From Catajapyx aquilonaris (taxonomy: Eukaryota), in the NCBI GenBank assembly GCA_000934665.2, contig JYFJ02003684.1, forward strand, positions 1 through 38,990: 38,990 nt of DNA, written 5' to 3'. The notes below the pieces were generated by a model. That model saw nothing but the letters and a program-made list of their open reading frames with translations, searched no databases and was not told the origin of the DNA. Positions 3,551 to 37,495 of the stretch are shown piece by piece. The stretch's first letter is position 1. The number at the start of each line of letters is the position of its first letter. The translations under genes were made by a program, and so were the position numbers.

Positions 3551-3710
3551 TATGAAGTATGATCGAAAAGTTCCCGGATTTTGTTCATAAAAACATTAAT
3601 ATTTACTCTTTTAAGTCCTAATTTCCGCTGCCCCTTCAAAGTAGTCACCTTGGGCACTTATACAACGATCCTAGCGAATTTCCCATTTTTGGAAGCACCC
3701 CAAAAAATTG
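3551..3710 (-). mobile_element. Mariner transposon 3' end (transposase C-terminus plus TIR remnant)
   Basis: Minus strand translates FLGCFQKWEIR*DRCISAQGDYFEG, matching the mariner C-terminal CFQxWxxRWxxCIxxQGDYFEG pattern. TIR-like TATGAAGTATGATCGAAAAGTTCCCGG at 3551. Confidence 0.8.
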
Positions 3711-4859
3711 GCTCGCACAGTGTTACCCTAATATGGTCTATTTCCCGGCAACTTGTGAGCGACAATGTGAACATTTTCTCATGTGCAGTTAGCTGGGGCC
3801 AGTTTTACATGTGTTAATTTATTTTGTTGGTTTTAATTACTTCATGTTGTGGTCTTCGATGCTCTTACGAACTGCTGATATGCGAGCATAGAGAGGAAAG
3901 GTCTGCAGCCTGCTGAGGTTGGGAGCAAAGTAACCTGATGTGTATCAGTAGTCAATAATTGTAACCATCACTTAAAAATAGGAAGCAATGAGAAAAAATA
4001 GCAACAAATGGTAGCGAAAGTAACCAAGTGGCAGCCCTTTCTGAAGTGGAAGTCTACGGAAGGGACAATAACAGGCCTGCCATAGTTTCATCTGCGGCGT
4101 GTTTCTCTAAAATATACATCCCAATATGAATCAATGTCTCTTACAAGCCATATGGTGCAAGTTCTGGCACAACCGCCACTAATGGTTGTGTACAGGTGGA
4201 TTTTATTTGAAGTTCAACTGCATATGTGTGCTAGCTACAACTTATGTCTGTAAAGGTATAATATCATTGAAATGTAAACCTACTCTGCAGGTGCTTGAAA
4301 TTTTCTTATTGTCACCGCTGCTTGATTTACTGAATATAATGGGAAATAGGCATGTGGTTGGCTTAATTTGTTTTCAAGTCATGCCTGTTGCCATTCATAT
4401 TGATGTACTTGTACTTGTTGGCCCTGAATAGGAACAGTGTTTGTGAATGAAGTTAAGAGGGGGCAAAGCCAGGCCAGTAATCCGGTAATTTTGATCGAAG
4501 TAAGGAAGTCTAAATAGCAAAGCCCTGGTGTGGTAAGTGCGCAGGTCACAATAATGAGATTAGCGAAATTTGATGGATGGAGCATGCTTACTCGTAGCTT
4601 CTAAAAGATCAGAGAAATTTTGAACCACTATAGGGATGGAAAGTTATAAAGTATCCCAGTCATTTACTTCAGTCGTTGACAGCATATTATGGCCATGAAC
4701 TCTATATTGTTGGCTTCCCTTTATCTCTGAGCGGAAAGCAATTTTTATTAATGTCTCTTCAGGTAAATTCAGATATCTAATATGAATTTACTGTGGAGGC
4801 GGAAGAATCTGTGAAAGACACCCCTGCCTCCAAGTCCATGTCAGTGATCACTATGTAGG

Positions 4860-5025
4860 ATCTCCTGCTGTGCTTTTCGTATGTGTCTTTTCCAGAGTCT
4901 GGTAATATCCATGGTGAGGAAAACATGCAAAGAGAGTAGTAAGGATTTTAATCACTCTGAGGTCAACCTGCGTTCACTTATTATTTCAAATGGATTCCAA
5001 CTAGTTGAGCGTATGCTCTTCCTCT
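4860..5025 (-). pseudogene. Fragment of unidentified repeated coding family (copy E1; coding-like sequence may extend to ~4100)
   Basis: Homologous to 5790-5930 and ~26530-26640 (TCTTTTCCAGA.TCTGGT.AT.TCCA.GGTGA ... TTATTTCA....TTCCAACT). Confidence 0.6.
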
Positions 5026-5199
5026 GCTGCCTTTTCTTGTGCTATGAACATGTGATTCATGTACGGTTACCAAGATGGCCATTGAAGCACATTGAAATTA
5101 TTGGCCCGAGACGCCATTCTTGTACTGGTATTGATGCTTAAGTCCTGGTTATTTATCTTGCAGTCTACTTAGGACAGTTACAACAATGATTGGCCAAGT

Positions 5200-6040
5200 A
5201 AGAAAATAATCTTGGCCTAGATTGTCTGATCAGCACATTTGCTCCCTTAACTTCCATAGCTTATAACTGATTTTGTATAAAGGTACCATATTCATTGGTA
5301 TTAGTTATCCTGCATCTTATTGCAAATCAATTATCTCAATGGGCTGGATCCAAATTAATTCTCCTGAGTACATTGGTATGTTGCTGGAGAGGCATTAAAA
5401 GAGATAAATCTATGATCTGGTAGCATATGACTCTTGATGCATACCTTGTAGCGTGGCATCATAGATCACATATTGTCTGTATTTTTTGCCGGATTTGCCG
5501 GATAAAAATGAAGTAAGAATTGTCGTGGGCATTTGGAACGAAATCTTGGTCTGCTGCGGCCAGGTGCAGTGTCAATAACGTATCCCATCCTGGCAATTGA
5601 TATGGGTGCATAGCCTCATTGCATTTTGAGGCATTTTAACTGGTAATTTTCAACCGAGCGCCTTTATATAGTATCGATGATAGAGAACTAAGAAGCTTAA
5701 TGTTTTTGCACTCTTCCATACCGTACCTTTGGATATAAAATGCCAATAGAGGAAGATGAACTGTTCCTTATACTGAGTACGACTGGGTTTGCTTTGCGTT
5801 TCGTTTGTCTCTTTTCCAGAATCTGGTCATGTCCACGGTGATGAAACCACAACATGCAAAGACAGTAAGGACTGACCTGTGTTCTCTCATTATTTCATGT
5901 AGCTTCCAACTAATGGGGCATATTATGCTATCCTTATACATGATGGCCTTCACATGTGGATTAACACATCATGGCGTGGGGCAAAAGTATGTTTGTGGAG
6001 ACAAGATACCAAATATTCCGGCATCTCATGTATCCAATGC
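5200..6040 (-). pseudogene. Fragment of unidentified repeated coding family (copy E2)
   Basis: 5240-5500 aligns with 24240-24510 and 5525-6030 aligns with 26250-26735. Minus-strand peptides include ISWKLHEIMREH, KSAKTLSFLVLYHRYYIK and KISYKLWK. Confidence 0.7.
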
Positions 6041-7535
6041 GACGCCACCTATTACCAGTATTATTAATATTACCATCTTGCGACCTTGTCTGCACAGTCT
6101 ATCTTTATTACTAAATTTTTAGGCCTAATGTTACATGATTTAAAATATCGATATTTGGTCCAGTTAACACATCTTACGAGCCTACTCCCGCATGTGGTTG
6201 TTGTGTTTTTGTAACTAGTCTTCAAGTCACCTAAGGTTGCCCCTGGCTGTAAATGGCCTCCAGCATCCGGCGCCGGTAGGCCACTCGCTTTGGTAGGGAC
6301 ATCTGGTCTGGGCTGTTGTGAGTGACCTCTGCAACCTCTGCGGGAGGTGCTATCCCACGTTGCCCAGGTTGGCCATCGACGATGCCTTACGTACAGACGT
6401 ACAGTACTTTGTCCGTGATTGGATGTCCCATCCTGCTTGGCTGAGACTGTGTAAAAGGGCAAGAGAAAAGTCAATGCTTTCTGACCTTATTGCCTACTGT
6501 TGTAGAATCAATCGGGTTTTTATTCTGCCTGCAAGTGATTTCGGTCCTAGCTGAGATGAGCAGCTAACAGGGCAGCAGTGAGACTGAGACGGAGACGACT
6601 GATTAAATGTTATCATTGTAATATTTTGGTTCATAAACCGGGAGTGAGAGGCTGCAGAGCCGCATTGGCTGGCCAGTCCTTAACCCCCTTTTAAAGTAGG
6701 ATCCTCTGAAAAACCAGTTGAAAGTAATGCAGTACATAATGGGATAGCATGTAATGATATGGATAGCTAATTCTCCTCCCTCTAGGACAGTTTTTGGGTA
6801 CCAATTTCAGTGTATGAGCAGATAGATCACATGACTGGTTCGAACTGTTTATGCAACTGCCCAAGCATGTCTCCTCCGCTTTAGTGAGTCAGTTTGTGAA
6901 TAAGAAAAACATGCAGAACAGATGTCAAGTAAGAAATGTACAGACAGTTGGAAATGAAAAACACTATGCATATGGGGGAAATTAATTATTTGAAGCAAAA
7001 CTCAATCAACAATTCCTCAACGCATACGGACATAAAAGCAAATCACACAAATATATAAAGCTTACACGCAAGCTCAAGCACATTCAAACTATTCTAATAC
7101 AGGCGGTATGTGATTGAAAGTTGCACATGTGTCATGACTTTGGCACGGAAGTATGCTCCTCAAGTTGATATGCCCTACTACAATTCATTAGTCTCTAGCG
7201 ATGATGTTCCAGCAGATGACACTGATAGTGAATGACAATTATGTAGTTTTTCCAAATAGCGTTAGTGAAACATGTGATATTTGGCTTTACTTTCATGCCT
7301 TGGTGCAAGAACAAGGTAAGTCCAAGGTAAACAATTGCCAATATTCTAAAATCAATTAACAATATCTTGTGCTTCACATTTTTATGTGAAGTGGACAGGT
7401 CCAGGGATGGGCAAAAGGGCTGCATGTTCCTAGTGATTTTATGGAGCGTTATTTGTTCCTCCTGTACTTCACTTTATGGACTCCTTCTTGCACCGAGGTC
7501 TTCAATTACGAACCCCCCCCCCCCGGGAAATGTAT

Positions 7536-8180
7536 TTAGCTACCACAGGATGCCGCAGCATCACGCAGAGACACCGTAAGGTCCCTAGTGACAGGCACAG
7601 AGGGTAGATGGCGAGCATAACACATGTACCAAATGATGGACGCAACGTGTGCACAGCAGCCAACAGTCCGTGCACCTGACTTGCACGTGCAGTACCACCC
7701 CGAGATTTCCCCGGGCTGGTAGCTGACCCAAGTGCTATAGGTGGTAGCAGACCTATGTCGAGAGTGCACTTGTACTCGGATGAGATCAGGCGCTGCCTGA
7801 TGACAGAGCAGCTCATAATCTCAATCTTCGTTCAAGTGCTCACTCACATAGCTCCTAGCTTTCCGCACTTGGTAGACTCCCAATGTGAGTCCTCTGACCT
7901 CCTCCTCCGTTAGGCGGGGGAAGTCAGGAACAGCAGCTGGGTCACTAACGACTCAACTCCGCCCGCAGCTGCTCAACGCCCCTGTCGACACACGCCCTTG
8001 GAGAGGGTTCATGTTCCGCACTTGCTCTAACATCTTCCGAGCAAGAGCTTCATGCTCATCTCCTTACCAGATGAGATGAATTCCGGACGGAAGGCATTAC
8101 ACAAGGCGCAAACAATCCTTACCAACCTTCCAATTTGGTCCACCATGGCAATGGGTACTGTATCACGCAGAAGATCGACA
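7536..8180 (-). mobile_element. Degenerate ISL2EU/IS4EU-type (PIF-Harbinger-related) transposase C-terminal half with SWIM zinc finger
   Basis: Minus-strand translation with one frameshift and two stops: VRIVCALCNAFRP...[31 protein letters not shown]...IRVQVHSRH...WYCTCKSGARTVGCCAHVASIIWY (SWIM CxC...CxH). Confidence 0.8.
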
Positions 8181-8449
8181 TTAAATGAATGCATGCCTAC
8201 CGTCTCCGGAGCCCTCCGTGTGCTAGTTTATGGATCGTCTGCTACTCGAGCCAGAATGTCCTTCAGGGATGCCTCCTCCTTACACTTACATAAATATTCA
8301 TATAATGGTAGTGAATACGTATCCGTAATTCTCATAGTGGCACCGAAGGTATTTCTGGGTTTATAAGTAACTAATGGTAATCTGTGTTCGTCAATTACAG
8401 TTCGTACCGATTCACCTCTTACTAGCATATACTACTGGTCACACAATCA

Positions 8450-8570
8450 TCTCTTTTGACCGTGGGTCAATGGGTTCCTAAGTATTAATCGAGGAATTGC
8501 AAGGGTCACCAGCTGTGATTTGTATGGGATGACATCTCTCTCCGTGACTTGTAAAGCTGAGGTCGTGGGA
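8450..8570 (-). pseudogene. Fragment of unidentified repeated coding family (copy G)
   Basis: TGACCGTGGGTCA.TGGGTTCC...TAATCGAG...CTCC.TGA.TTGTAAAGC is shared with 12785-12900. Peptides ALQVTERDVIPYKSQL vs ALQIMENDDFVYKSRL. Confidence 0.6.
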
Positions 8571-9067
8571 TGACATGGTTAGACAGCCCCTATGGGAAGC
8601 TGCAGAAGGTCACATTGCACTGATGTGATTACTGAATCCATAATTTGGGAAGCATCAGTAGTAGCATCAGATGCAGAAGCGACAAATATAACTAATTATT
8701 ATTGTGACATTCGCATTTTTATGCTACATGTCGATGAAAATACACAACTCACAGTTGGTAATTAAAAGCTTCTAGTTTTGCTTTAAGATGTTATAAGCTG
8801 CTCCATTTTTCTCCAGTCGTCAACATAGATGGTCATTTGATGAAGCCATTTCATTTTGCACATAGTCAATGACACGGCACGCTTCAGCTATTGCCTTGCG
8901 ATGTCTCTAGAAGTCTATTATACGAGCGTTGTTTGTTAGTGTTTTCCTGCCCTGGCAATATACTTAATAGATATTTCTCTTCTACTGGGTGTTTTCAGAC
9001 AGAATGATAATTAATTAATTAATTATCTCATTTTTTAAAAATAATAAAAAAACACATTTTGTTCAGT

Positions 9068-9115
9068 TGGCGTTGGGGTTGGGGTGGCATTGCCTGCCCT
9101 CCCCTACAACGTCAC
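9068..9115 (+). repeat. Short dispersed repeat resembling a hAT-MITE terminus; inverted homologue at 33010-33060
   Basis: CGTTGGGGTTGGGGTGGCATTGCCTGCCCTCCCCTACAACG vs reverse complement of 33017-33057, CGTTGGGGTTAGGGTGGCATCGCCCACCCTGCCCTACAACG. Confidence 0.55.
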
Positions 9116-10269: not shown

Positions 10270-12910
10270 TTACATGGAAGGAAAGTAAGTTAGCATGGGA
10301 TGAATAAACAGTGCGGAAGGAATGTGTCTCTTGCTCTCGAGGTAGTGCAGATTGAACCTTTTCCTTCAGGAACAAACATGCCCTCCTGATGAAAGTAATA
10401 TCAATTGGGATGTTTTCAGGGTCTGGATGCGCCCTTCTTCCCAGTGTCTTTCATTGCTAGATGTACACCTACATAGAGCCACCGTTTTCTTCCAGACCAT
10501 CTCATATTGGGACACATGTGCCAGTGCACCAAACATGATTTTGGTCGGATGCTTGAAGCTGCTTCAGTTGGTACTGTCAAGGGCTGTGTTTATAATCATA
10601 TGCCTCTTCGGGGAAAGCTTCTTCCTACATACGTTGATTAACAATTAGTACTGTGTAAGCGAAAATAAATCGTCCTGCAAATAACAGCGTTGGTGGTGAA
10701 AGATGTTGCAAAAAGTAATCTTGCCATCTGGAAGTCCTGCAATCTCATACATGTTGCTTCCTCTACTAGTTGCTGCAAAAATAGGACAGTCAGATAATTT
10801 GGTTCTTTGAGATGAGTGTGACCCTATTTGAAGTTCAATCTATTCCCTTAAAGTATTGTTCAGACATTGACTCATTTTTCAAGTACAGAGTAGTTATGAG
10901 GAATGCAAAAGGGTGGTACTGTTCCTTGAAATGTTCCGCTACCAACAATTCGAGCCAATTGCAAGAATTGCCCAATGAAGTAGAATTGGACCCGTTGGGT
11001 AGCAATGCAATTGTTGGACGTCGTCTTTCCTGGCCTTTTTGTTGCCATGTTGCTTCAGAACTCTCCGAACATGCGTCTCATCGCTTTGGCACTGTAGGTA
11101 GTTGTTGGAAAAGATTGTTCTCTTGTTCTCAGTGAGTGACCATGACGACCATAATAATAGTTCGATAGTTGAATAAAGGCTTGCCCACCGGAGCCTGTGG
11201 AGACGAGAGATGAGACAAGGACAGACTTGTGAGGGAGGTCCATTGCTGGACATCCTTGGGTCTAAAACATACTCTTAAGATCATCAGGGCAAAATAAGCG
11301 AAATATTAATTTAGACATAAGAGGTCGTAATAAATACGGGCCTATCCATCTGAACTAAACCAGCGGATTTATCTGCCAGCTGAACTATCATATTAGCTTT
11401 TAACCACTTCATGGCTTCTTGATCCATATCACTTTTCCTATGTAGGGTTGGGTCTACGAGTAGTTAGATAAGATAAGAATGTGTCCAAAAGTATACGACT
11501 GATCATATAGCTTCCGGAAAGAAAGTAGGAAATTTACCTGTAGGTCTAGCCTGCTCTAACCAGGTAGTGCATGCATGCTGCTTTATGCCTTGTCCTAGCA
11601 GGGCATGAGTAGGGAATGTTACAGCCATTTTTATATTCTTTACCATAATAATAATTGTGACGGTAGATTTAAAATGCGTTCTGATATTGATCGTCACAGA
11701 TGATGTTATTCGTATTTTGGATTCCAATCATGGGGTATTTCTTCAGCAGACACACCTGAAAATGGCAGAAGGAATTGTATTCACATCTGGACAATTTTCG
11801 AGACCAGTTGAGTCCACGTGTCCTGTACGTACTACTGGGGATATAACTTATGGAAAAAGCAATAAGGTGGAAGACTTTCTCGAGCTGATCATGGCCAGTG
11901 TTGGGAGAAGGAGGCTGTAAGAACACGTGAAAAATTCTGGAGTTGGTGTAACATTTCAAGCATGTCCTTAGAACTACGTTATTTGGGAATTCTCCATTAC
12001 AAACAGTTTTTTAAACACTATTGTGACCTGAGAGTTTTGGTGCTCTCCCGTCTTGTAATGTTGTTACCTACCCCGTTCGACTGTAGTATCACTGATTTTC
12101 TTTTGTAGTTAGGAACGGGGTTGCATTCTGAGTTTGGTATCACTATGTCTGGTATCTATAGAGATTGTACAAACCGAACGTCTTACCCATCATGCCTTCT
12201 GGCATGATGGCGTCATTCCGTGCAAACCAAATACCTCGCCCATCATGCTCTGTTCACCCCATGCTTTTAAATACCTTGCTACCACTGCTGTTGAGGCCTT
12301 TCGTCAGTGATCCAAGCTGGCGACTGGTCGTCCACTTATCGTTCCTCTCCACATTCTTACCTTTCATACTGTTCCCTTTGTACGTGATGTGTCCGAATGC
12401 GAATAAACCTAGTCACAGTGAGATCCCGTATTTCATGTTTATTGACCCTTGCGGGTCACACTATTATGAATGGTTGCATTCCGCCCTGGTCTGCTGTTCA
12501 TTTCTGATCTGATTGTGAGCCGCAAAGCCAAGTTTTTTATGTTCTTTAAAATGGAAGAAAGAGGGATTTGTATGAGAGTAGGTCGCTTTCCAACCATCAT
12601 CGTGCGAGTTTTGCGAGTAACTAAGTGTAGCTCAAGTGTAGTTTTGTGGAAGAAAAAGGCTTTCAGACCAGTCCCTTTCCTGGGTAAGGGAAATATAATT
12701 TGTCTCTCTGTAGAGCTCTTTTATCGCCATTGCAACATTCGGATTAAAAACAGGAAAATACTCTTGAACTGGCCAGACTTCACTTGTGACCGTGGGTCAG
12801 TGGGTTCCAGGGTAGTAATCGAGCAGTTCTGGGAAGAGAAAGGAATCCGCCAATCGTGACTTGTAAACGAAGTCATCATTCTCCATGATTTGTAAAGCAA
12901 AGTGAGATCG
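10270..12910 (-). pseudogene. Longest copy (A) of unidentified repeated coding family, interrupted by a solo LTR
   Basis: Sub-segments align with 30690-31400, 21570-21700, 26745-27280, 24745-25005 and 8450-8570. Reconstructed peptides: ESLPPYCFFHKLYPQ*YVQDTWTQLVSKIVQ, CDDQYQNAF, QAPVGKPLFNYRT, CPIFAATSRGSNMYEIAGLPDGKITFCNIFTTNAVICRTIYFRLH. Confidence 0.8.
12022..12460 (+). mobile_element. Solo LTR (439 bp, gypsy-type 4-bp TSD)
   Basis: Termini TGTGACC...GGTCACA, CTAT direct repeat at 12018-12021 and 12461-12464, AATAAA at 12402. Paralogous copies near 24955 and 27158 lack the insertion. Confidence 0.9.
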
Positions 12911-13195
12911 CGGCCCATTGAGCTAAGTGAAACATGACCGAAATATTAGCTCAGTGGTTAGGTCGAGTTGTTGAAAGGAAGATGTGCCCTCCATCACATT
13001 TACCTTATTGCGACTTTATATACGAAACTGCTGTGGTCGCAGTGTCTCTTCCAAAATTCGGCTGTATACTTTCTTACAGTTGTCAATGTATGTTAATTGT
13101 ACAGGGGTCCTCAAATAACCTGTGCACACGAACTGTATTGCAGATAATAACACCGCGTGGATTTTGAGCTATACGTGTTGTGCATAATGTTTATC

Positions 13196-13495
13196 TGTCC
13201 AACGCCAGCCTATCGTCGTCCTGGTTGGCTGAAAGGACCCCTGCTCCGCTGCCTCCACTAGGGCTTCGTCCTCCTCTGTGGTACCGACAAGAGGGGACCA
13301 CAGGGAATGTCCCGCGTTTTCACTGCCCCTTCACTGCCTCCTATTCATATCGCTTGGCCCATCTTTGAATGGACCGAACCGATAGAGATATCTCTAGTTG
13401 CTGTGATATCTCTCCAGGGCTCAATTCCTGTTCATGGCATCGGGTCTGGTACGTAATACCGAAAGACATAATACAGACAGAATAAATTTCCGACA
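13196..13495 (+). mobile_element. Possible solo LTR
   Basis: TGTC...GACA termini with AATAAA at 13481 near the 3' end; no TSD found. Confidence 0.3.
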
Positions 13496-13886: not shown

Positions 13887-14151
13887 TTTAGGGTTTTATT
13901 GAGAAGAAGCCAAAGCAACTATGGCTATCTGGCTATAAGAAGCAAAGGTGGGACAGATGGAGAGAGAAACGAAGAGGAAAAAGAAGAGAGGAAAGACTGG
14001 CATCTCTCTTAGTCTGTCTCCTATCCCAAAGACCTGTCCGGCTTGGGTGGCCCTACCAGTAGACGAAGCTACCGCCGGCATAGCTCTTGGGGTCACGGGA
14101 GAAACGCAAACCCCCCCACCACCACGATAAGGTGGAGATACCATCGGGGGG
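13887..14151 (-). mobile_element. 265-bp non-autonomous retroelement: RTE/BovB-type conserved 5'-UTR motif joined directly to a LINE-type 3' tail
   Basis: Perfect 12-bp TSD CCTTAGCTTAGT at 13875-13886 and 14152-14163. Head CCACCTTATCGTGGTGG...GAGCTATGCC...GGTAGGGCCACCCAAGCCGGACAGGTC; tail ending GGCTTCTTCTCAATAAAACCC. A second tail copy lies at ~28330-28456. Confidence 0.85.
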
Positions 14152-16059
14152 CCTTAGCTTAGTAATTTCGCCTTCTTCCTATATATATTTCATCTACTAA
14201 CAGTCATTTTTTCCTACCGCCACAATACCTATTTTCTTCCCGGAATCTGTTTCATCCGGTTGTACTACTTTGTCTTTAAATTTTTATTTCGTAATTCCAT
14301 AAATTTCGATATTACTTTCATTAGTTATTTTTCCCTTGTCGGTATATATTTTTTTCAATATTTCTGCTTCATAGGTCATATTTTTATTAGGTCTTTCCCT
14401 CCTGTCAGTATTTTCAATTTCGGCATCCCAAACATCCTTGCAAATGAGTATGTGGCGGAAGTTCGGAGGGTGTGTTCACGGTTGGCTACAGGTTTCAACA
14501 TTACCAGTGCATTTCATCACAAGTGCAGAATACTTATTAAGCCCTGATTCATTCCCTGAACTGAGCAAGCTGCGCACAAGTGAAATTTCCACTCGGATTT
14601 TCCAACGTCTCTTGACGTCCAAAGCTCTCCACATATGGAGGAGATTGTAATGAGCTCCATCACACTACCACAGGACACTGTGGTAAAATTCAAACACCTG
14701 ACGAGAAAAATCATAGCCGGTCTATACGTCGGACCGAGAGATGCAGATTACCTACTTGAGTACCTTCCCATATTAGAGGTGTTGGAAATGAGTGATGTGA
14801 AGCGTGTTCTACTGTCACTATGCCAACACCCTTATCCTTGTTCGAAAGACTTTGTTGGATGCATCGATGGTGCTTTTTTCTAAGCAATTACACTTAAAAT
14901 AGTCGCCATGAGAACATGACTTTAGAGTTTGGGTGAGAGAACAGTCTCATAATTATGTTGCTTCTTGTGGGTATGTACGACTGATGACTTACACTTAGCC
15001 CAAAAATTAGTAAGTGCCAAAGCGCCATACGCATTTTGTACAGCTCTTTCACCCCCAGTGAAATATTGTCATGGATATCGACATGATTTCCATGTGACTA
15101 ATACATTATTTTCAAATGGCCTATTAACGAGTTCCTTCAGGTGCCTTCCACATGCAGAAGAGCAACAGTATCTACGAAGTCGTGCTGTGCAATAATTGTT
15201 ATGTATTGTTACCTGAACAGGTTAATTGGCAATGACAACACAGTCAGCCTCGGTACACCTTGCCTTAAATGTCTTCACAAATGTTGGCAACAACATCCTT
15301 TAGTGAGGGGAGAGTCACACAAAGGCGTCCTACCTCTCCGCCAGCCGTGTGTGAAGCTCAAACGCCGAAAACGCTTGTTGAGCGAAAAATGTAGACCAGA
15401 ACGCTTTCAGATGTTTTAAAACAGTCATCAATCATGAACAAGGTGTCAGGCCGGGGCAGAGGTCAAAAGCGAAGGATATTTTGCACCAAATTGCTATGTC
15501 TCATGCATCGCAGAATAATTTGATTAAAACTATTGGTTTCAGAAGAGCTCATGGAGTATGCATTAATTTGATGAGAAACACATCAAGCTCATTTTCAGAT
15601 ATGCAATAATAATTGTTACTCTATGATGTACATTGCGGAGGATTTTGGTAACGCATGCTTTGCAATGTTAATTTTTTCTGATCACTCTTCCTCCTGGGCA
15701 AGTATAGTTTTTCATTCGTTTGCTGCTCCTTGCTAGAAATCGGGCGGCTTGCACCTATCGTTATTACTGAATTTTTAATATTACATTACTTAAAATAAAT
15801 AAATAAGTACCGGTAAAGTTTTGTTTTTTTGATTAGCTATTGTATAATATTGTGGATGATGAGACTGCATTGGCGCAGGACCTTTGTGGTGCGGTCGCCG
15901 TAGCTCTGGCACAGTACTCGAGACCTATTCGAATGCTTACATCTGACAACAAGTAGTGTACAGTTAAGAGTGCATTAGAAACATGGTATAGATGGTCCTT
16001 GGCCAAACTAACAAGGGAAAAGAGAACAATTTTGTAACCACGAGGCAGGTGGTACAGTA

Positions 16060-16390
16060 CAGTATACCTTTCTCCGTAGCACAGAGGATACCACCAGATA
16101 TTCCTGAAGTCCTCGGCCACTTTCTCACAGTCATCAGTATTAGCCGTCAGGGTTCTGTAATTATAAATTTGAGAACCGTTTTGTGATTCACTTTCACTTT
16201 ATCACTTTATAACGATCCCCACACCTTTCAAGTCGTGTAACCTACTTACATTCATAAAGTGGACTTCTATACCTGCCAAAGAACATCGTATGTCTCTTTG
16301 ATAATTACATTCGACTGCAGCTATCCAAATGCAGAAGGCAGCTGAAACAGCGAAGTAACTGTCACCAGTAGCTAAATATGCTAGTAAGAG
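16060..16390 (-). mobile_element. Harbinger (HARBI1-like) transposase fragment, two exons
   Basis: Minus strand YLATGDSYFAVSAAF...IIKETYDVLWQV followed by a GTAAGT donor, then TDDCEKVAEDFRNIWWYPLCYG. A pyrimidine-rich ...TACTAG acceptor precedes YLATGD. Confidence 0.75.
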
Positions 16391-18081
16391 AAGAAACATG
16401 TACAATCTATCACAAAAAGTTGTGGCCACTTTTGCCCGAGCTTTAAAATGTTTTTTAGACTGTTAATTTGGGGTCACTTAAAAACGTTGTTTTGCCAAAT
16501 TGTTTCAGAATTTCTTGGTATCAGTGGTGCTACAAATGATCAATTTATTGTTCGGACATTATTTACAGAGATGTAGTTCATATGCAACATGCATAATTTC
16601 AGTCAAGTAGGCCTATACAATTCATATCGGACTTCCGTCATCGTCTGAAAACACAATACATCATGACCTTGAGGGTTTTATTTACAACCATATGCGTTTC
16701 CTCCGCTAGTTTCAGGACACCTGGATCATAGGTAGTTAGCAGCTTGATTACCGTATCGACTGCCATGAGAACCGCATCATCACCCGCCACATGCAGTCCT
16801 ATCCCTCCAGTTTTTCTGATGACATATGTTTGAGGAACGGATTGGCAGGTCCAGGGTCTTCTTAACCAGTGGGCGGAAGTGTTTGTCGATCTTGGTCTAC
16901 TCGGCTTTCGGCAGCTGTCCCGTCATGGGAACACCATGTCATCAGGAGTGCTGGTCCTAATGCGAGGCTGCGGCGGCCATTGTGCTTCATCATGTTCTTG
17001 TTTTGATTGGTGGATTGAGTGGTGGCTGCCGGTGTCTCCCGGCCCGTTGGCCAAAGGATCAAGTGTAGAAGCGCGAAAATTAAGCTGATAAGAACTGATT
17101 TCGTTTATTAATAACACGTCTGGTACAACAATAAAATGCGCTGTGACAATCATATTGTTTTCGGTCAGTGAAACATCAAAAGAGAGAAAGTCTCGTTTAG
17201 TCACTATAGCAAAATGGTGGGTGTATGGAGGAGGATGAGAAACGGGAGAGAAACTATAGTTCTGCGTTGCTGGTTTGTTTTCGGCGGATCTTCCATGTTT
17301 CATCTCAATGGGTGTCCCGAGTATTAATTATTAAACGAAATCATCCTAGGTCAAATAGGGCTTTCTCCGTCACACTCTCTTCAACATCCTCCCACATAGG
17401 CCGGCCAGCATGCGTCTGTGTTGTAGTACCTCTTTCACCAAGATCAGTCCTTCCTCCAATTGAAGGAAAGATAGAAGTCATGATGTCATAATTAGAAGTT
17501 CGTCTCTCGGTTCATAAACACTAGCTATCAGGATTTATAATATTAGTTCTGCAACGATGTTTTTAGGAGGACCCCTCACGCCTGGATAGAGGCTGATGTA
17601 ATCGCTGGAAATGAAACATTTTCACAGTGAGTTGGTGCTAGTGCTTGCCGAAAGCGAGATAATCATAATTATGTTACGAATATAATTATACCAATTATAC
17701 ATATGTTATTCGTTGTTGGTGTAAGTGTTGTAATTTTAAAATCAATATAAACTTTTGGTTTATTCTCGCTTCAGTCCCACTCCTACAGGCATCCTCAACC
17801 AGTTCACCAATCCCACTTCTACAACCCCACTCCTCCCCACTTGACTCTCTCCACAACAATCAACGTCTCTCTACGAGTAGTAACACCGCACCATGCGATC
17901 AAGTTTCTTTGTGAAACAGAGTTTACTTGCAGATGCGGATATATTGTCAAGCACAGTAAGTTGAATTGGTTGAATAGATTGTGACCTGCACATCATGTGG
18001 TCATGTTCGTTTTATTATATGGTTTATGCGTTGTTTCATCTGCAGGGTGTCATACTAGCATTGCGTGGTAGGAGATGCCTT

Positions 18082-18539: not shown

Positions 18540-18609
18540 TTATGGGGGGGGGGGGGGGATTTAACGTGTAATTGCAATGTGTAGTTTTAAATCGTCATCG
18601 TCCAATTAG

Positions 18610-21569: not shown

Positions 21570-21700
21570 TTAAGTGAGTGACCATCGTTCGATAGTTGAA
21601 TGAAGTTTTGCTTGCCCACTGGAGCTTGTTATGCTGAGACATGGGACAAGGACATATACTTGTGAGTGGGGAGGACCGTTCCTGGACATCCCTGGGGTCA
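21570..21700 (-). pseudogene. Fragment of unidentified repeated coding family (copy F)
   Basis: Aligns with 11130-11265. Peptides PRDVQE...QAPVGK..FNYRTMVTHL vs PKDVQQ...QAPVGKPLFNYRT...MVTH, with synonymous CAG/CAA, CCG/CCA and ACT/ACG changes. Confidence 0.7.
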
Positions 21701-23184
21701 GAAGAGAATAAGCGTTATATACGTGACAAATCATTTGTAAGCGCGTATTATGTTTGTTCACTCGCCGTACTTGTGCGAATGTTTCCGTATATTATTTCAA
21801 GAAATCGTCCTGCCGTCGTCTGGAAAATGTACAGTGTACTTCTTGTTGATTGAGGTTTTGTCGCCAGATGACTTTTGTCCCTCCATGCTGTGAGGCCTAC
21901 AATGGTATTATCTTTTTAAAAATCCCAGGTCGAAACAACGGAACAACGCGTTGCTCAGTTGCAACGGTATGAACTACACTCCTGAAGGTTTTGTGCGGTT
22001 TCCCTCTCTCTTGGCGAGGGCCTACATCCAGATAGGCCGTCATTTTCTTCATGTTTATGACAGTCAGTCTTGCAATCCTACTCTGCCAGATTTCATAACG
22101 AGGATATGAATTTTTATTACTATTAGATGCGAAAACTATAGACTAACGGTCGATCAAGATATTGTAACAAGCCGTTTGGACCGTGGTTTTTCAGAAACCC
22201 AAGTATGTGTTTAAATGAGCCCATATTGTGTCAGTAATCCTGGAAGGGAAATATATTCAAAACGTGCCAGTAGCCTACTATTGCTAGTTTATATGCCATG
22301 AAAGTGCAAGTCGCGTTGTGCTCATCCTGCAGGACGGTATTCCCAGCAGGCTACCCGTCGTGTCAGTTACAATTAAATATTTCTGAAACTGCCATTGATT
22401 AATTGGCCAGCATGTTTGTCCAGAATAGATGCGAACTTGCTGGACATCACGTGTTCCCCAGGGATTCAGGTAATGATTCTGGTAATACTTTCCTAAAGTG
22501 ACACTTGCTATAACACAAACTGACAAGCAGTCCAAAGTGGAAATAAAAATAAAATAAATAAACAACACTAAAACATATCCACATCACTTAATTATTTAAA
22601 ATATACGACGGGCTTTGTTCTCTTCACTGCAAAAGTGCGCTTGCCCCTGCTGCTCCAGCTCTGCAGCTGTGTTACCGCTTCTGCCGCCTTCACATGGCGT
22701 ATAAACAAAATACGGTACGATACGTTTATTCCCGTCATACAAACTATATGGGGAAGCCCTCTCTCCAAAATTTTACAAAATAATGCCACAAAGTTGCAGT
22801 TTTTAAACTACTAACACACACACAATTTATACAGTGAGTAGACCTTAATGGTTGGTATATTAATGAACAGTGTATTTTGTCCGGCGGAACCCTCTGGAAG
22901 TCCTTTATCCATTCTCTTGCTTCCTTATAAACGTCACACTGAAACAAAGGAATTTCTACCACCATATTACAAAGCGAACAAACTCATGCTTCTTCAAATT
23001 TGATACAATAACCCTGGATGTATCAAACTTTGGATTTATTTCCTATATTTATTAACATACGTACTCATTTTAATGGCATCATGTTATGGAGATAGATTTC
23101 TGGCATGTAACCATTGGAGATTGCCTGATAATGATTATAATAATGTGTGTCTTCCAGTGTCATTCTATCCAGATTTGGAGGCGC

Positions 23185-23515
23185 CCATGCGGCCGATGCT
23201 TCTGGCGACTACTAGGACATATCGTACAACATCCAATGCGCTGCTGAATGTCCTGGCTGGCTGTCCGCCTCCAGACTTGCAGGCTCAAGCTAGATATCAC
23301 CAATACCTTCTGCCTAGCGGCAGACAGGGTATTATCAGTACTAAACGCTTAGATCTTGTGGACTTATGATGGACTGATGACTGGTGGTCTGGATGATTGG
23401 TGTTTAATGACTGGGTGGCAGCCAAGTTGACGTTTTGTTTTGTATTAGTTTTGTTGTCAATGTTGAGTGAATGGGCTGTTGGGCCTTAATGGCATGGTTG
23501 GTCCAATAAATTCCG
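23185..23515 (+). mobile_element. R1-clade non-LTR retrotransposon 3' fragment
   Basis: RPMLLATTRTYRTTSNALLNVLAGCPPPDL matches the post-RT motif AYRTxSxxALxVLAGxPPxDL; followed by a 3'-UTR-like tract with AATAAA at ~23505. Confidence 0.7.
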
Positions 23516-24159: not shown

Positions 24160-25005
24160 ATTGAATAGGACAATTACGACTTCAAGTGCGAAAGTAATCT
24201 TGACCTAAATGGCCAGTGTGCTTATGTACATCACCTTTGTTCCAGTACCTTCCATAGCTTATAACTGATTTTGGATATAAGTACCGGATTCAATAATATT
24301 TATTAACCTCACATTAATGCAAGTAAATTTTCTCAATGGACCCAAAGTATGTTCCTGCATGGAGAGGAATTAAACGAGATTGCGACATTGCATGCATACA
24401 AATCTGGTACCGGTAGTGGATGACTTTTGATGTATGCCTTTTCTTAACGTGGCATGCTCTTTCATTACCGTACACGTTTTCTGTATTCTTTGCCGGATTT
24501 TAAAAGTGTCCTGATATTGTTCACGTGCAGGATTATTGCAGCCATGCACTTTTAGCTGGGACACACAACATGATGTCGTATAAGGGCCGTTTTCTCGAAC
24601 AGTGGTTCAAATGTAAACCGGGTTCAAAGCCAGTTTAATCCCTGATTTGATTGTTGTTAGGCTGTTGTCAAGGGTTTAAACCGGCGTTGAACCGGGTTTA
24701 CATTTGAACCACTGTTCGAGAAAACGGCCCTAAGTAAAATTTTCTCACACTTGAACTATTTTCGAGGCAAGTTGAGTCCACGTGTCCCGTACTATACTGT
24801 GTACATAACTGGTGGAAAAGCAATAAGGTGGAAGGCTCTCTCCCGAGTTCATCATGGCCAGTGGGGAGGAGGAGGCCTTAAGAACAAGTAAATAAGCATG
24901 TCCTTCGAACTACGTTAATTAGGGAATTCTCCAAGTTACAATAAGTTTTTAAAACACTAATATGAATGGTTGCATCCGTAAACCGCTTCCCGCCCTGGTG
25001 TGCTG
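24160..25005 (-). pseudogene. Fragment of unidentified repeated coding family (copy B), with a MITE inserted
   Basis: 24160-24510 aligns with 5200-5500; 24745-25005 aligns with 11790-12021 plus 12465-12495. Confidence 0.75.
24584..24730. mobile_element. PIF/Harbinger (Tourist-like) MITE, 147 bp
   Basis: 36-bp perfect TIR GGGCCGTTTTCTCGAACAGTGGTTCAAATGTAAACC, extending to ~60 bp with few mismatches. TAA TSD at 24581-24583 and 24731-24733. Confidence 0.92.
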
Positions 25006-25329
25006 TGGGATACTTACGTTGTCACATGTAATTTAAAAGGGAAGAACGTGTGATTTGAATGAATGTAATTTATTTTCCAATCATCGTTGTCGCATATCAT
25101 AAAGGACACACATAATAGGAAAGAATTAGGTTTATTGACCTCACCTTCACAGGCTAGGTACAAAACCCAGGAGAAACCGGAGCATTTATTCCTCGGACCA
25201 GATGGAAACATTGAGCATGACGTCACAATTCCAGTTGGCCGCCACCCGCGAATAGGGATTGGGTATGGTTCTGGGCGGCAAGGCGCTCGCTGGGCGAGGG
25301 GCTGAAAAGTTGGAAAAACCCACCTAATC

Positions 25330-25560: not shown

Positions 25561-26249
25561 TGTTTTCGCCATCTCGGCCGCCAGAGCGTTAGAGTTGTGT
25601 GTATGTAATATTATAGCCATGATATTGCCTCGAAATTTTTCTCTTCAATTGATATGATTTCATTGATGAAATTAGGCACGAGAAAGTGTGATATTTTACA
25701 AGTCATGCTTGTTGTACATTGCAGTGAAATTGCGAACTGCGGCCAACTGATGATAATTGTCGTGCCTTTGTGACCGTCACACCTTCATTTGCAATTAACT
25801 CGCAATGACCTGTGCAAGTGTTCCCGTATATGTAGTGTTTCTTCATCTCCTGGCAATGTTGCAAAGGTCATCTTGTGTCGCACTATAAGTTCCTGGATGC
25901 TGTTCTGGCTGTTGTAAGCTCTCCGACCATGGGGTAAAATTTTCCTCTCCTTTCTATAGATTAGCTGTCAACTATGTAAACGTCTTTCCTGCATGTCAGT
26001 GTTCTCATTATTTATTAGGATGACGATCTGGTCTTGTAACGAAATGAGCTAGTGCTGCCTCAGTCATTTTGGATCGTCAATGTCATTGTCTGAGGCGTCG
26101 TCAACAGGCAAATTTATAACTGCTGTGTCTCGCTCAGATTGCAATGATGGAAGTAGGGATTGGTGTAATGGTTACAGACATCAAGCGACTGACATTTTAA
26201 TTCCACACAATGAAGCAAGGTACTGTTTAGACACAAACTAAAATATTGA

Positions 26250-27280
26250 CTTGGACATTTGGAACGAAATCTTGGCCTGCTGCGGCCAGATGCAGAGTGC
26301 CTGGCGATGTGAGTAATCTGCAGGGGTCACACAACTTGTACCCTGCTGGTGCTATGATATCGGTGCAAACCCTAATTGCAATTTGAGGCCTTTATGTAGT
26401 ATTTATGATAGAGAACAAAGAGACTTTAATGTTTTTGCACTCTTCAATACCTTTGGGTAAATGGCAAGGGAGGAAGATTAAGTGTTCCTTGCCTGTATCT
26501 CTTGCTGGGCTTGGTGTGCGTTAGATAGCATTTTTTCCATGGTGACCATAGTAAGGATTGAACGGCCTAGAGTCTGTTACTCTGATGTGGACGTATGTTC
26601 TCTTATTATTTCAGGTAGTTTCCAACTGATGAGCCTATGCTACCTTTTCAAGTGGATTAACACACCGTTGCATTTGCATTTGCCAAAAGTACGTATATTG
26701 CTAGAGAGAAGTTACAAAATATTTCGGCATGGCTTGTATTCATAGCCAGGTAGTGTATGCCTGTTGCTTTATGCATTGTCCAAGCAGAACAGGAGCAAGG
26801 CTGTGCTTCCATAACTTTCCTATACACTTTGTCACATTTGTTGCTGTAGATTTAAAAGCATCCTAATATTGATCGTCACAGATCAAGTCATTGTTCATAT
26901 GCTGGATGCCAATCATACGTTCTCAGCAGATGCACCTGAACCTGGCAGATACACCTGGACTATTTTCGAGGCCAGTTGACATGTCCCGTAGTATAGGGAA
27001 TATAACTTGTGGAAAAGCCGTATTCCTGGCCAGTGCAGTGGGGAGAAGGAGACTGTAAAACCAGTGAACACTGTAGTTGGTGTCGTAACATTTCGAGCAT
27101 GTCCTTCGAACTACGTTTTGGAATTTCGGGATTCTCCTTTACAATCAGTTTTTAAAACAGTAATATGAATGGTTGAAACCGCTTCCCGCCGCGCCGTGGT
27201 CTGCTGTTGATTATCCTGAATCGCAAAGCCACTGCTTCATATTCTTTAAAAATGAGTCGCTTTCCAATCATCTTCCATCA
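26250..27280 (-). pseudogene. Fragment of unidentified repeated coding family (copy C, mosaic)
   Basis: 26250-26735 aligns with 5525-6030; 26745-27280 aligns with 11560-12021 plus 12465-12600. Confidence 0.8.
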
Positions 27281-28329
27281 ACTTAACGCTTCCTTCTTCC
27301 GTTGGGAGTATTGCACCATACGCTTTAGCTCATCAGCGTCTTCTTCTTCTGTATCTTGCTATAACATAATTATGTCAAAGACAGAGTAGACTGGATAACA
27401 ATATTGTGTGGGTGTGCAATCTCTTCTGATTAGGACATGTCAAGGACACATTTCTTTGTATATAACTTATTGCCCATTACAATTGCCAACTTATTGTTGT
27501 CTTGCCTTCATTTGCGATCACGATTCTTGTTGGATCTTTTCACACCTTTGAATAGGTCAGCTTGTGTCGCACTATTTTCACTTTGTAGGCTATATACACT
27601 ATTTTGCACTATAGTGTTTTGCAACGTACTAAACCCTCTTCCCACCTTTATCATCGTTAGTTTACTACTGACACTGAGATGTCATTAATTCCACCTAATG
27701 AAGTGATCCTGCATTATTTTACACAAATTGGAGGTGGTCTGGTGCCGTACTTGCTTTTTTATTGACTGCGATCATGTGCGGTGTACTCGGTTTGATATTT
27801 TGGTTCTCATATGACCCCTGAATTGAAAGCTGAATCTTCTCAACACACCATCCAAGAAAATGGAAAAATTTGGTCACCCAGGACTAAGCCTCCACCGGCG
27901 ACCTGAGGGGGGGATTTAAAGAAGTCCACCTATATGACCGACGAGAAGGAGCAGGACTCGGACCTATTACGTCCGACGACCACAACTTGGACAACGCCAT
28001 CTGTTGACAATTGATTGATGTAAAGATATAGTTCTGCAGCGATTTCCATATTATGTGAACTTACCCGGCGAGCCAGGGTTTGATGTCATATTTCTTCTCT
28101 TTTTCGGAGCGACCTGCTCACCTGAAAGTAATGGCTGATCCTCAATACCTGGAACATGTATGGATACTGAGAAAAGAATACGAACTTTATCACTTGTACT
28201 GCAATTATATTTTATTAATATCAGCTGTGTGCATTTATGTTAGCAATAAGTAGCAGGGGCGAACTGGCCATGGTGGAGTTGTGGAGTTTTCCACAGGGAC
28301 CGGTCAGTTAGGGTCTGTAGGGGGGTAAG

Positions 28330-28456
28330 CGAGATACCAGTCTTTCCTCTCTTCTTTTTCCTCTTCGTTTCTCTCTCCATCTGTCCCACCTTTGCTGCTT
28401 CTTACAGTCAGATAGCCATAGTTGCTCTGGCTTCTTCTCAATAAACCAAACCAAAC
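28330..28456 (+). mobile_element. 5'-truncated copy of the 13887-14151 retroelement (3' tail with (CCAAA)n end)
   Basis: Near-identical inverted match to ~13893-14005; ends CTTCTCAATAAACCAAACCAAAC. Confidence 0.85.
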
Positions 28457-30689: not shown

Positions 30690-31400
30690 TACGAAAAGGG
30701 AAGTGCGTTAGCATGTTATGAATAAAGACTGACCTTTTCCCTGATGCCCTCTTTATGAAATTCATGTCATCAATTGGAGCGCATTCAGAGTCTGGACCAC
30801 CCTTTTTACATTCTCTGGTATTGCTCTTCCTAGAAAACCATGCCTACTTAGAGCCACTCTCTTATGGTGGGACACAACTCTCTGTCAGTGCACCACACAC
30901 GTTTTTGGTAGGATGCTTGAAGCTGATTCTGTTGACATTACCAAAGGCTGTGTTTATGGTCACCTGTCCTCTTTGGGGAACGCTTCCTCCGTAAATGTTG
31001 GCGTACAATTAGCTATTGGTACAATGTAATCGAAAAAAAAAATCTTCTGCGAATAACATCATTGGTGGTGGAAGATGTTGCAAAAGTAATCTTGTCATCT
31101 GGAAGTGCAGCAAGGTCACACAGGTTGGTTCCTCTACTAGTTGTTATAGAAAAATAGGACACTCTTAGAGATTAATTTGGTCCATCGAGTTGAGTGTGCC
31201 CCATTTGCACCAACAACACTTTTTGTATGGGTTCAAGTTCAATAATTCCCTTTAACCGTTGTCGATACATTGACTGATTTTTCAAGTATACCTGTACACA
31301 GTCGTTCTGAGGAACTCAAAAGGATGAGGTACTATTGCTCTAAATGTTCCGCTCCCAACAATTTGCGCCAATTTCAATAGCTGTTCGATGAAGTAGAATT
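30690..31400 (-). pseudogene. Fragment of unidentified repeated coding family (copy D)
   Basis: Aligns with 10270-10990. Peptides HPFEFLRTT/YLKNQSMY and TSRGTNLCDLAALPDDKITF...TTNDVIRRRFFFRLH, with many synonymous differences from copy A. Confidence 0.8.
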
Positions 31401-31652
31401 GGTAAACCTGAAAAACAAAACAAAAATGTCGTCATTAATGTGAAGACACTCGCGGCACCTGCACATGCTCATCCTTTCCTTCTTCACCGTACCGGGTTCA
31501 GTCTCTGCTGTATAAGTACACAGAAGGTACTTAAATTAAATTAGTATGCATTGCGGGCACAGGTCCGAATGATGAGAAACCATTGTTCTCAACAATGGTT
31601 TCTACGGCCATTTCTTGTTAGCGGTAGCTAATATAGACGAAAATTCGACCTA

Positions 31653-31820: not shown

Positions 31821-33412
31821 AGAATGTGAGATTTTAAAGTGTATTAATTAGTTCCAGTCTCCAACCACACCTTCGTCATACTGACTGCCAAGGGTGAAAT
31901 ATCCTGGGGAACCTGCAGGGTTAATAACCGTTCAAAATATGAGGTGGATTATTATTGCTGCAAATGAACGGTAAATAATGTCAACAACCAAACCTGCTGT
32001 ACAGCCAGCATGAAAATGCTGGGTAAGTTCATCTTCTGTCACCAGACATTTTTCCATTTTCCTTCTTCTTTAATAGGATGATGATAATCCCGAAGTGAGT
32101 CGTAATAACTTGGAATTTCATACTTGTAGTTTTTCAGTTCGGAGCTATGGCATCTTAAAAATTGGTTATGTTGCTCGAGTAGCATTCTCCTACACATGCA
32201 TTCACGTCTCTCGCTACAATGCATAAGGTGTAATATTGATAATCTTCGCAGTTACGTAGACATATGGCAATTCTTTTGGGCTTTCATTCTCTTGGCTGAA
32301 CACCGAAGCTGAGCACTTCAGGTGTTTTCGTATCTTCCGTGTTGACCTGCCTTATGCAAGATTATCCTGATGCAGTATTGATATAGTATATTCTACATCT
32401 GTATATGACTAATTGACAATACGTAGCTTACGTCAGCAAACTGCTGCATGACGGATGGTAGTTCATTGTCATTTTGAGTAGTGCTGGGAAAGTCACTGTG
32501 AACGTGAAGGTGTTGTAATACCATGTGTAATCTAAATAACAACACCCGTTATTTATAACATTATAATAATAATTGTTCTAAGCACATTCTGCCATGGCAG
32601 GTGAAAGCAGGCATAACAGAAGGCACAAGTTTTGCCACACAGAGAAACTCCCCCTCAGGCTCAAGAAGAGGATCAGTGTACTCGCTGAGACTGTGAAGGA
32701 GATGAGTTGATTCAGTCCAGCGGGGTCATCAGTGAGGTTGGATAATGAAAATGATGAATGCATGGTTGCAGCCTAGATAATTGATTCGTAAGTTTCTCCC
32801 CTCAATAATCGCATTACTTTTGTTAATAAATTATTTGTGATTATATTTTGGCCACATGGGCAAAGCAATACAATCACAGGTAGAAGATTCCTGTAACAAG
32901 CAAAACTGGAAATGGCAAGTTTTGTTTGAAATCAAAGTGTAGGGTTTCGGTTGATTTGATTAGTGTACTTTTAATGGCGCAAAAGCAACAGTGGCTATAC
33001 TTCGCCAATCATGGTGCGTTGTAGGGCAGGGTGGGCGATGCCACCCTAACCCCAACGTAAGTATACAAACTTGTTTTAAAAAGATAATGAATAATAAATA
33101 TGCCCCTCCGAAGAACAAACCCACCAAAACAGAACTCACAACCACAAAAAAGGAACAAAGAAAAGCAAAGGGTGGCAGTCCAACCCAAAACTGAAGCTCA
33201 TAATACGAGATTACCTTATGTCAGCATCTGTATATCATACAGATGCCGACATAAGGTAATCTCTTGTCAGCCTTGTTGTACTCCGGCCTGTTTGGTGGCG
33301 CTAGTCTTCTCCTGCTATTAGCTAGCCATCTCGTCAAATGAATTGCGACGACTGATAGGCCGTACATGGGTCCACCACGTCTTGGGCTGTATTATTATTC
33401 TTGGAGGATGGG

Positions 33413-35871: not shown

Positions 35872-35898
35872 TAATAATAATTATTATTATTAATAATA

Positions 35899-35931
<33 letters not shown>

Positions 35932-35957
35932 CATAATAATCATAATAATAATAATAA
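35872..35957. repeat. (AAT)n microsatellite
   Basis: Directly visible AAT/ATT run. Confidence 0.95.
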
Positions 35958-36372
35958 ACGAAAGTGGAAATTCAAAGCCACACATATTTACATTTGTCAA
36001 ATATGCATACGGCAGGGGCCGAAATATTCGAATGCAAATTAGTTGCTGCAATTTGCACTCCAGAATATTGTTTTCTGCACTCCAATTTTCGCATTGCAGT
36101 TGGTTCTTCTTTTTAACACTGACTAAACTCAGTAGTTAAAAATGAAGGACTCCGAGTAAGTCATTAGAGCTCCAGATAAAAGTCTGGACAAAAAAAATAC
36201 AATATTCGACACCTGAAATGATACTGAACCATGTGGCATAAACTAAATAACAAGTCAATGCAGAGTTATGGCCAACACAAAATAACAGCTGTTTCAGTTC
36301 AGATGAAACTACACAGACTACTCTTGTAAGATAAGTCAATACATGTTTGGATTGAAATCATAATCAATCGCA

Positions 36373-36575
36373 TCAGCAAAATATAAAACTTCAGTGACCA
36401 GTGTGACTTTCTGATGCCACAAGGAATTAACACAAATCAACTTAATATGCAATTACAATCATTATTGCCTCAGCAAAAAAATAAAACTTACAGTAAATGA
36501 CCAGTGGGACTTTCTGATGCCACAAGGAATTACCACAAATCAGCAACTTACAAGGCAATAACAAAAAAATGAAAC
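36373..36575. repeat. Two imperfect tandem copies of a ~96-bp unit
   Basis: TGACCAGTG.GACTTTCTGATGCCACAAGGAATTA.CACAAATCA at ~36395 and ~36498. Confidence 0.85.
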
Positions 36576-36640
36576 TTAATAGCTAGTGTGGCCTCCGCCT
36601 TGCTCGATCACTTCAGCTAGTCTCTTGGGCATGCTGGAGG

Positions 36641-37495
36641 TCATCTTGCCCAGGATCCAAGGTCGGTTGGATATCGACTCTCCCAGACCTCTCTACAGTA
36701 TTCCTTTAGCAAATCATCTCTGCGTTCGTTTCTGTTATCCCATTCTCGAACCATCATAGCCCACACGTTCTCTATGGGGTATAGGTCTGGGGAGCATGCC
36801 GGCCACTGGATCCTTGAAATCTTGGGCTGGTCATTGAGGAAGTCAATAGCAACCCTCGCGGTGTGAATACCTGCGTTGTCTTGAACAAATTTGATGGACT
36901 GCTCCTCCGGATAGCGGGCCTCCAATTCTGGCAGAAGCTCCTCCTCCAGTAACTCCACATACCCCTCGGCGTCCATGCGCCGAGGGGTAGAGGTGAATAC
37001 CACCGCATCGTGCCCCCTTATCACCCCCCAGAAACCTGCCGTTATATGCCCACTTCTTTTGGCCTCAAGGATGTGCCTTTGATCATAGCTGCAACAATAA
37101 GAAGACCGTAAGTTGTTACGCCCCAACGTGAGCACGACATTGAGGACGATCCATGAGCTTGACGCCTTGGTTGGGGCGCCGCGCCGTGCCATTGGAGCGG
37201 TCATGTCATGTGAAAATCGTTTCATGCTATTAATGCCATCTCAATCAGGGGTTTCGGAACAGGGCAGACTGGCGCAGAGGCCACAATGTTCACGGGTCAT
37301 CCGATCAAAAAACCAACTCCTCACTTAGCCTACCTTGATCTCGCAGTTTGAAAGTTGCCCGGAAACCCCGGGACATCCCTCCTGACTGTTGTAGTTGTAG
37401 GCTGAAATGGTCTCTCCGTCGCAGCCGCCACCAGGGCTTCGTCTTGATCTTCCGTGCTTACACGGGGTCGCACAGTAGGCCAGGCGGATGGGTTA
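36641..37495 (-). mobile_element. Degenerate Tc1-family transposase (D35E spacing)
   Basis: HTH region RPRVSTEDQDEALVAAATERPF. Catalytic region FVQDNAGIHTAR...WPACSPDLYPIENVW has 35 residues between D and E. The first catalytic D reads HETIF in a shifted frame. Confidence 0.9.

Follow-up and report, generated by a model that had tools for sequence, protein, structure and literature searches.

Contig JYFJ02003684.1 of the arthropod Catajapyx aquilonaris was analyzed here over 38,990 nt of its forward strand (the window), a repeat-rich stretch (42.8% GC; observed/expected CpG ratio, 0.69) that is best explained as an old, nested graveyard of transposon fragments together with a fairly young copy of a partiti-like virus capsid gene. 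A sequence-only reading of positions 3551–37495 had previously described a strong minus-strand bias of transposon and viral relics in this DNA, and had proposed that it is a one-strand cluster giving rise to PIWI-interacting RNAs (piRNAs). Our Pfam scan was strand-neutral and covered all stop-to-stop open reading frames (ORFs) of at least 40 amino acids (aa; n = 519, 246 on the plus strand and 273 on the minus strand), and it was accompanied by a read-through scan of all six frames in 18 pieces, with an X at every stop. Because minus-strand ORFs served as the seeds for the tblastn protein library, these searches are blind to unrelated plus-strand families. An Rfam search of the window returned no matches, and a tRNA scan returned no genes.

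We found a near full-length capsid gene of a partiti-like virus, present as an endogenous viral element (EVE), on the minus strand at 19461–20633, as the sequence-only reading had proposed. The 231-aa ORF at 19575–20267(-) matched 153 cluster representatives at E ≤ 0.001, including 45 at E ≤ 1e-10 (best, 4e-30), and in tblastn the element spanned approximately residues 26–460 of proteins of 440–496 aa. Ten of the capsid relatives were examined, of which five are 430–496-aa proteins on Logan contigs of 1.4–1.7 kb, and two come from genome records of the wasps Microctonus aethiopoides and Diprion similis. Pfam recognized no family in nine capsid-family members of typical length (430–496 aa). We also obtained an AlphaFold model of one homologue, P0056, from a 46-row alignment (predicted local distance difference test score [pLDDT], 85.2; predicted template modeling score [pTM], 0.77), and a Foldseek comparison of this model with BFVD returned 59 hits at E ≤ 0.001; those that carry a name are capsids, from Verdadero, Netjeret and Galbut viruses, from partiti-like viruses and from numerous fungal partitiviruses. 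From homology over most of its length and the modeled partitivirus fold of its family, we conclude that the capsid EVE is real and partiti-like.

This element resembles the capsid genes known from partiti-like viruses of arthropods (Verdadero, Galbut), and from endogenous insect copies of them, in that it aligns over nearly the whole capsid and belongs to a family with the same predicted fold; it differs in carrying two frameshifts (near 20252 and 19665), which divide it into three frame blocks, and in lying among transposable element (TE) fragments. In insects, partiti-like viruses cause persistent infections and are passed on vertically. The composition of the EVE also sets it apart, with 54% GC and a CpG ratio of 0.89, compared with 43% and 0.69 for the window. 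Because its disruptions are few and its composition is distinct, we infer that the EVE is younger than the transposon debris that surrounds it. In the flank of the EVE, one long capsid-family protein, P0116, gave a weak tblastn match at 18631–18954, and Pfam analysis of four long capsid-family proteins and of three window ORFs at 18598–18988 explained nothing there.

Two transposase remnants could be identified by homology, both on the minus strand. The first, at 7539–8278(-), is the C-terminal third of a transposase that combines a DDE domain with a SWIM-type C-terminus, a type for which we take the family name to be ISL2EU. Its ORF at 7539–7820(-) matched 27 of 61 candidate proteins at E ≤ 0.001 (best, 7e-24), from sources that include Mytilus and Rotaria, and the typical match was a protein of 600–700 aa that carries PF01609 and PF13359 and ends in a SWIM-type C-terminus. 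In tblastn with these relatives, 7539–8278(-) corresponded to approximately residues 437–687 of about 690, so that the window retains the SWIM-like C-terminal third, and no DDE part was detected in it. Both searches agree with the sequence-only reading, which had placed an ISL2EU-type fragment on this strand.

The second remnant is Tc1-like and lies at 36579–37470(-), where it consists of a DDE_3 domain and a short N-terminal piece. The DDE_3 domain scored 48.4 bits in Pfam, against a cut-off of 28.6, which places the remnant with Tc1/mariner transposases; a protein search with the ORF carrying this domain found 12 distant Tc1-like proteins, and tblastn aligned 36579–37129(-) as well as the N-terminal piece at 37381–37470(-) (E = 0.007). 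A further N-terminal piece probably occurs at 13172–13330, which resembles 37384–37475 at the DNA level. In a self-blastn comparison 13215–13303 matched 37388–37475 directly, and the translated comparison gave 57% identity over 28 aa (E = 2e-6); tblastn found no direct match between 13172–13330 and Tc1-like proteins at E < 1. Because the DNA pair is direct, this second Tc1-like piece is placed on the minus strand. Of the two Tc1-like fragments previously assigned to that strand, one is confirmed by protein homology and the other follows from its DNA similarity to the first.

Pfam taken alone backs one transposon remnant, on the minus strand. Among the 519 ORFs, nine families were found at E ≤ 0.01, and the only one above its own cut-off was DDE_3, at 36644–37240(-). 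Two sub-threshold matches fell on minus-strand ORFs, namely a SWIM finger at 7539–7820(-) (E = 0.0064) and a C2HC finger at 24373–24606(-), and the remaining six families (three on the plus strand and three on the minus strand) were unrelated and had no evident meaning. The read-through scan recovered DDE_3 and a sub-threshold C2HC zinc finger in the minus frames, and no family in the plus frames.

Most of the other elements named in the sequence-only reading did not find such backing. The mariner call depends on short motifs at 3632–3802(-) that may resemble a mariner C-terminus; a phmmer search of the read-through frame 3602–4699(-) against PDB chains gave no match at E ≤ 1, and the Pfam read-through scan found none. 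Four long ORFs at 15836–17327(-) had been called a Harbinger element. This run comprises two frame blocks with two in-frame stops only and one frameshift, and it looks like a fairly well-kept gene remnant. No relative of it was present among 902 longer-protein candidates, Pfam gave no match, and comparison by hhalign with an alignment of 12 DDE_Tnp_4-bearing proteins returned a probability of 0.1. The Sola2, piggyBac, long terminal repeat (LTR) and 265-bp retroelement calls could not be assigned to any element located in the window. The ORF at 23004–23366(+), which is probably the “R1 tail” previously listed as an exception to the bias, contains a motif that we take to resemble the ORF2 tails of long interspersed nuclear elements (LINEs); it belonged to no family in Atlas or in Pfam. 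More generally, Pfam found no reverse transcriptase, gag, integrase or env family in the 519 ORFs or in the 18 read-through frames, a search that a very decayed LTR element could escape.

Much of the remaining structure of the window is repetitive. Self-blastn of the window gave 24 repeat pairs, 17 direct and seven inverted. Five of those in inverted orientation are palindromes matching themselves, and the other two are interspersed: a 120-bp repeat with copies at 13895–14011 and 28326–28445 in opposite orientation (93% identity), and the pair 9049–9111 / 33077–33017. Two longer families account for several of the direct pairs. Family U, which is probably the “unknown gene” of the sequence-only reading, comprises a part A at 4866–6036, direct to 24166–24500 and 26236–26742 at 64–67% identity, a part B at 11517–12603, direct to 26704–27251 and 24720–25090, a copy at 24166–25090, and a copy at 26236–27251 that contains both parts. 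All family U pieces are direct relative to one another, and 4866–6036 and 11517–12603 match adjoining halves of the copy at 26236–27251; these two pieces may represent a single element that was split by about 5.5 kb of later insertions, including the ISL2EU-type remnant. Family V has two direct copies, at 10378–10989 and 30744–31402 (71% identity over 673 columns; E = 4.5e-95). Further direct pairs are 11157–11260 / 21584–21696 and 8450–8568 / 12780–12913. In translated self-comparisons of families U and V all frames and both strands scored alike; with no frame or strand favored, both families behave as non-coding, and only the relative orientation of their copies is known. The sequence-only reading had assigned every copy of the “unknown gene” to the minus strand; the copies are co-oriented, and the translated comparison favors no strand for them.

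Three repeat pairs share an offset of approximately 20.4–20.7 kb, and we considered whether a segmental duplication had placed 5.5–11 kb onto 26–31 kb. We rejected this as the main cause, given that the intervening sequence is unaligned and that other copies break the collinearity. Separately, the family U copy at 24166–25090 contains an internal palindrome of 149 bp (24583–24731; 81% between arms), and smaller palindromes were seen at 33207–33263 and 2254–2502.

Upstream of the graveyard, a GC-rich island at 751–1350 combines features of a candidate promoter. GC content reached 52–56% at 751–1250, and across approximately 1.0–1.25 kb the GC skew changed from -0.45 to +0.28 and the AT skew from +0.25 to -0.22. 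The island holds two TATCGATA motifs, at 1062–1069 and 1104–1111 (42 bp apart), as well as TGACGTCA at about 1134, and short GC-rich inverted repeats (938–958 / 1283–1328) flank the pair. TATCGATA is the DNA replication-related element (DRE), which is bound by DREF in Drosophila promoters (PMC2475616). In the whole window this motif occurred three times, compared with 0.42 expected, a number reached in 1 of 100 shuffles. The island is a possible promoter for a plus-strand transcript, perhaps a bidirectional one, as judged from its composition and motifs. It falls outside the span covered by the sequence-only reading. Long ORFs on opposite strands overlap across it at 864–1488 (188 aa on the minus strand and 171 aa on the plus strand); Atlas recognition of the ORF at 867–1430(-) was low (1450), with no family, and as neither ORF matches any family the overlap is probably a by-product of composition.

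We tentatively propose, with less than even confidence, that the window may be a one-strand piRNA source locus within a long plus-strand transcription unit. Transcription of the plus strand would start at about 1.1 kb, near the GC-rich island with its DRE motifs, and yield an RNA antisense to the minus-strand remnants, which would be cut into piRNAs directed against those transposons and the virus; we infer the transcription, its strand, for which the base skew is the guide, the promoter role of the island and every piRNA step. Consistent with this proposal, every homology-supported remnant is on the minus strand, and Pfam found none on the plus strand in the 519 ORFs and 18 read-through frames; repeat pairs are direct in 17 cases versus two that are interspersed and inverted; and the DRE pair lies in an island with a skew flip upstream of the graveyard, just downstream of which the CpG ratio is lower.

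The base composition of the plus strand points in the same direction. We counted 10411 A versus 11895 T (AT skew, -0.067; z = -9.9), and in 1-kb bins T exceeded A in 32 of 38, with G exceeding C in 25 of the 37 bins that were not tied. The excess of T does not track the verified remnants: bins over the ISL2EU-type and Tc1-like remnants have more A than T, and the skew is therefore a regional property and not a by-product of coding remnants.

Several points weigh against the proposal of a one-strand piRNA source. The remnants of known strand are all on the minus strand (4/4; two-sided p = 0.125, with the fourth placed through DNA similarity only), and only three of them are independent, or four if the second Tc1-like piece is included. 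Orientation agreed within repeat families in 6 of 8 cases (one-sided p = 0.145), or in 9 of 11 when weak matches were added (p = 0.033), under a grouping of the self-blastn pairs that is our own. ORFs of at least 120 aa were split evenly, with nine on the minus strand and eight on the plus strand. The signal AATAAA was found 30 times on the plus strand versus 44 times on the minus strand, for observed/expected ratios of about 1.9 and 1.6, which gives no plus-strand depletion beyond composition. The skew of the window, at 6.7%, is far above the 0.8–1.8% given for fly introns (PMC5786239), and repeat composition may contribute to it. The Pfam scans detected no LTR/Gypsy protein domain anywhere in the window, and its composition is unlike that described for flamenco-type clusters (PMC10643416). 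Finally, DRE marks ordinary Drosophila gene promoters (PMC2475616), and a host gene fits the island at least equally well.

Taken together, the counts are suggestive: a minus-strand bias is real as far as it is visible, since all four remnants lie on that strand and most repeat copies are co-oriented, and it is much less secure than the word “strong” in the sequence-only reading implied, the numbers being too small for it (p = 0.125 for the remnants and 0.03–0.15 for the repeat families). These same statistics (4/4, and 6–9 of 8–11) leave room for the view that the window is ordinary intergenic DNA, rich in repeats and untranscribed, in which elements are co-oriented by chance, aided by local duplication of family U, and in which the skew reflects repeat composition. 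Most elements listed by the sequence-only reading lack confirmation, the long ORFs show no preference for either strand, and the family U copies, which lie within about 22 kb of each other, could be local duplicates. We regard this view as somewhat unlikely, nearly on a par with the intron reading below. Against it, T exceeds A in those 32 of 38 bins, over approximately 34 kb and across many unrelated sequences, and family U survives as fragments with other repeats lying between them, a pattern that suggests nested insertion over duplication of one block.

A second explanation accepts transcription of the plus strand and dispenses with piRNAs. In this case an ordinary plus-strand gene would begin at the DRE island, and the window would be either its long first intron or the body of a long non-coding transcript from it; selection would have removed sense insertions carrying splice or poly(A) signals, and mutation linked to transcription would have produced the excess of T over A. 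The skew flip and GC-rich island at about 1.1 kb are in keeping with such a gene. So is the pattern of CpG decay, in that the CpG ratio was 0.53 (0.42–0.61) at 1501–8500 compared with 0.74 (0.70–0.78) at 12001–38990, with TpG/CpA raised at 1501–8500. Such a pattern points to germline methylation that is heavier immediately past the island, and gene-body methylation in arthropods tends to be strongest near the 5′ end, as is the decay here, which is stronger over the first 7 kb past the island. The DRE motifs themselves belong to DREF-bound gene promoters (PMC2475616), and an excess of T over A on the coding strand is the direction seen in Drosophila introns, where it amounts to 0.8–1.8% (PMC5786239).

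Intronic TEs show one-way insertion along a long transcript, for which no small-RNA function is needed: in mammals they are antisense-biased, particularly LTR elements and LINEs, with DNA transposons left out of that analysis (PMC3088655, PMC3517506). The verified remnants in the window, however, are DNA transposons and an EVE, whereas the mammalian bias is mainly one of LTR elements and LINEs (PMC3088655). The donor-like motif GTRAGT also occurs more often on the plus strand (27 times) than on the minus strand (15 times), which is not what removal of sense splice signals would leave, though the plus strand is rich in G+T and this may account for the difference. No exon, exon-like ORF or conserved protein was recognized beside the island or elsewhere in the window with Pfam or Atlas, no plus-strand Pfam family exceeded its cut-off, and, in contrast to the intronic cases, no flanking exon was seen in the window, the ends of which may themselves lie within an intron. 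We consider an intron or non-coding transcript of this kind somewhat unlikely.

Returning to a one-strand piRNA source, we compared the window with known clusters of this type. In Aedes aegypti, EVE cluster 38 is a unidirectional, “flamenco-like” piRNA locus (Aguiar et al., 2020; PMC7161354). It spans approximately 143 kb and contains 17 EVEs along with 73 TEs, of which 59% are gypsy, nearly all of these elements being on one strand. Like it, the window is rich in repeats and holds a non-retroviral EVE and TE fragments that include Tc1, and the proposed transcript would be antisense to those of known strand. The two differ in that a transcript and phased piRNAs were demonstrated for cluster 38 (PMC7161354), and in that the window has 39 kb, one EVE and no detected gypsy domain. 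In Drosophila flamenco and the flam-like clusters (van Lopik et al., 2023; PMC10643416), strand-biased TE fragments likewise lie downstream of a promoter, which here is a candidate, and sense insertions are rare near the 5′ end in the flam-like model. Those clusters are defined by antisense LTR/Gypsy enrichment (PMC10643416), which the Pfam scans did not find in the window; the verified remnants here are DNA transposons and a partiti-like EVE. The core piRNA clusters of mosquitoes, as described in a preprint (bioRxiv 10.1101/2022.08.22.504762), combine enrichment of antisense non-retroviral EVEs with transcriptional read-through and an upstream genic promoter, and a promoter of that sort would suit the candidate DRE-type promoter at about 1.1 kb.

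Plus-strand small RNAs from the window, if they do arise, would make it a piRNA cluster of the one-strand type in an animal that is neither a fly nor a mosquito. Such a cluster would hold DNA transposons and a partiti-like capsid, unlike the fly model with its wealth of Gypsy elements, and might start at an ordinary promoter of the DRE type. This would be relevant to the origin of such clusters and to the question of whether EVEs derived from persistent insect viruses act as an antiviral memory. It is conceivable, and in our estimation improbable, that this arthropod possesses several one-strand piRNA loci that consist mainly of DNA-transposon fragments in place of Gypsy elements and are driven by DRE promoters of the housekeeping type, and that the locus described here, with its almost complete partiti-like capsid gene in antisense, provides a heritable small-RNA memory against a virus of this kind. 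Should the arrangement instead reflect an intron or chance, the window would be ordinary, and its lasting item would be the well-preserved partiti-like capsid EVE.

Tandem repeats in the window are confined to 517–602 and to a (TAA)28 array at 35872–35957. The array, which sits where the AT skew goes positive (35–37 kb), might represent the tail of a non-LTR element on the plus strand.

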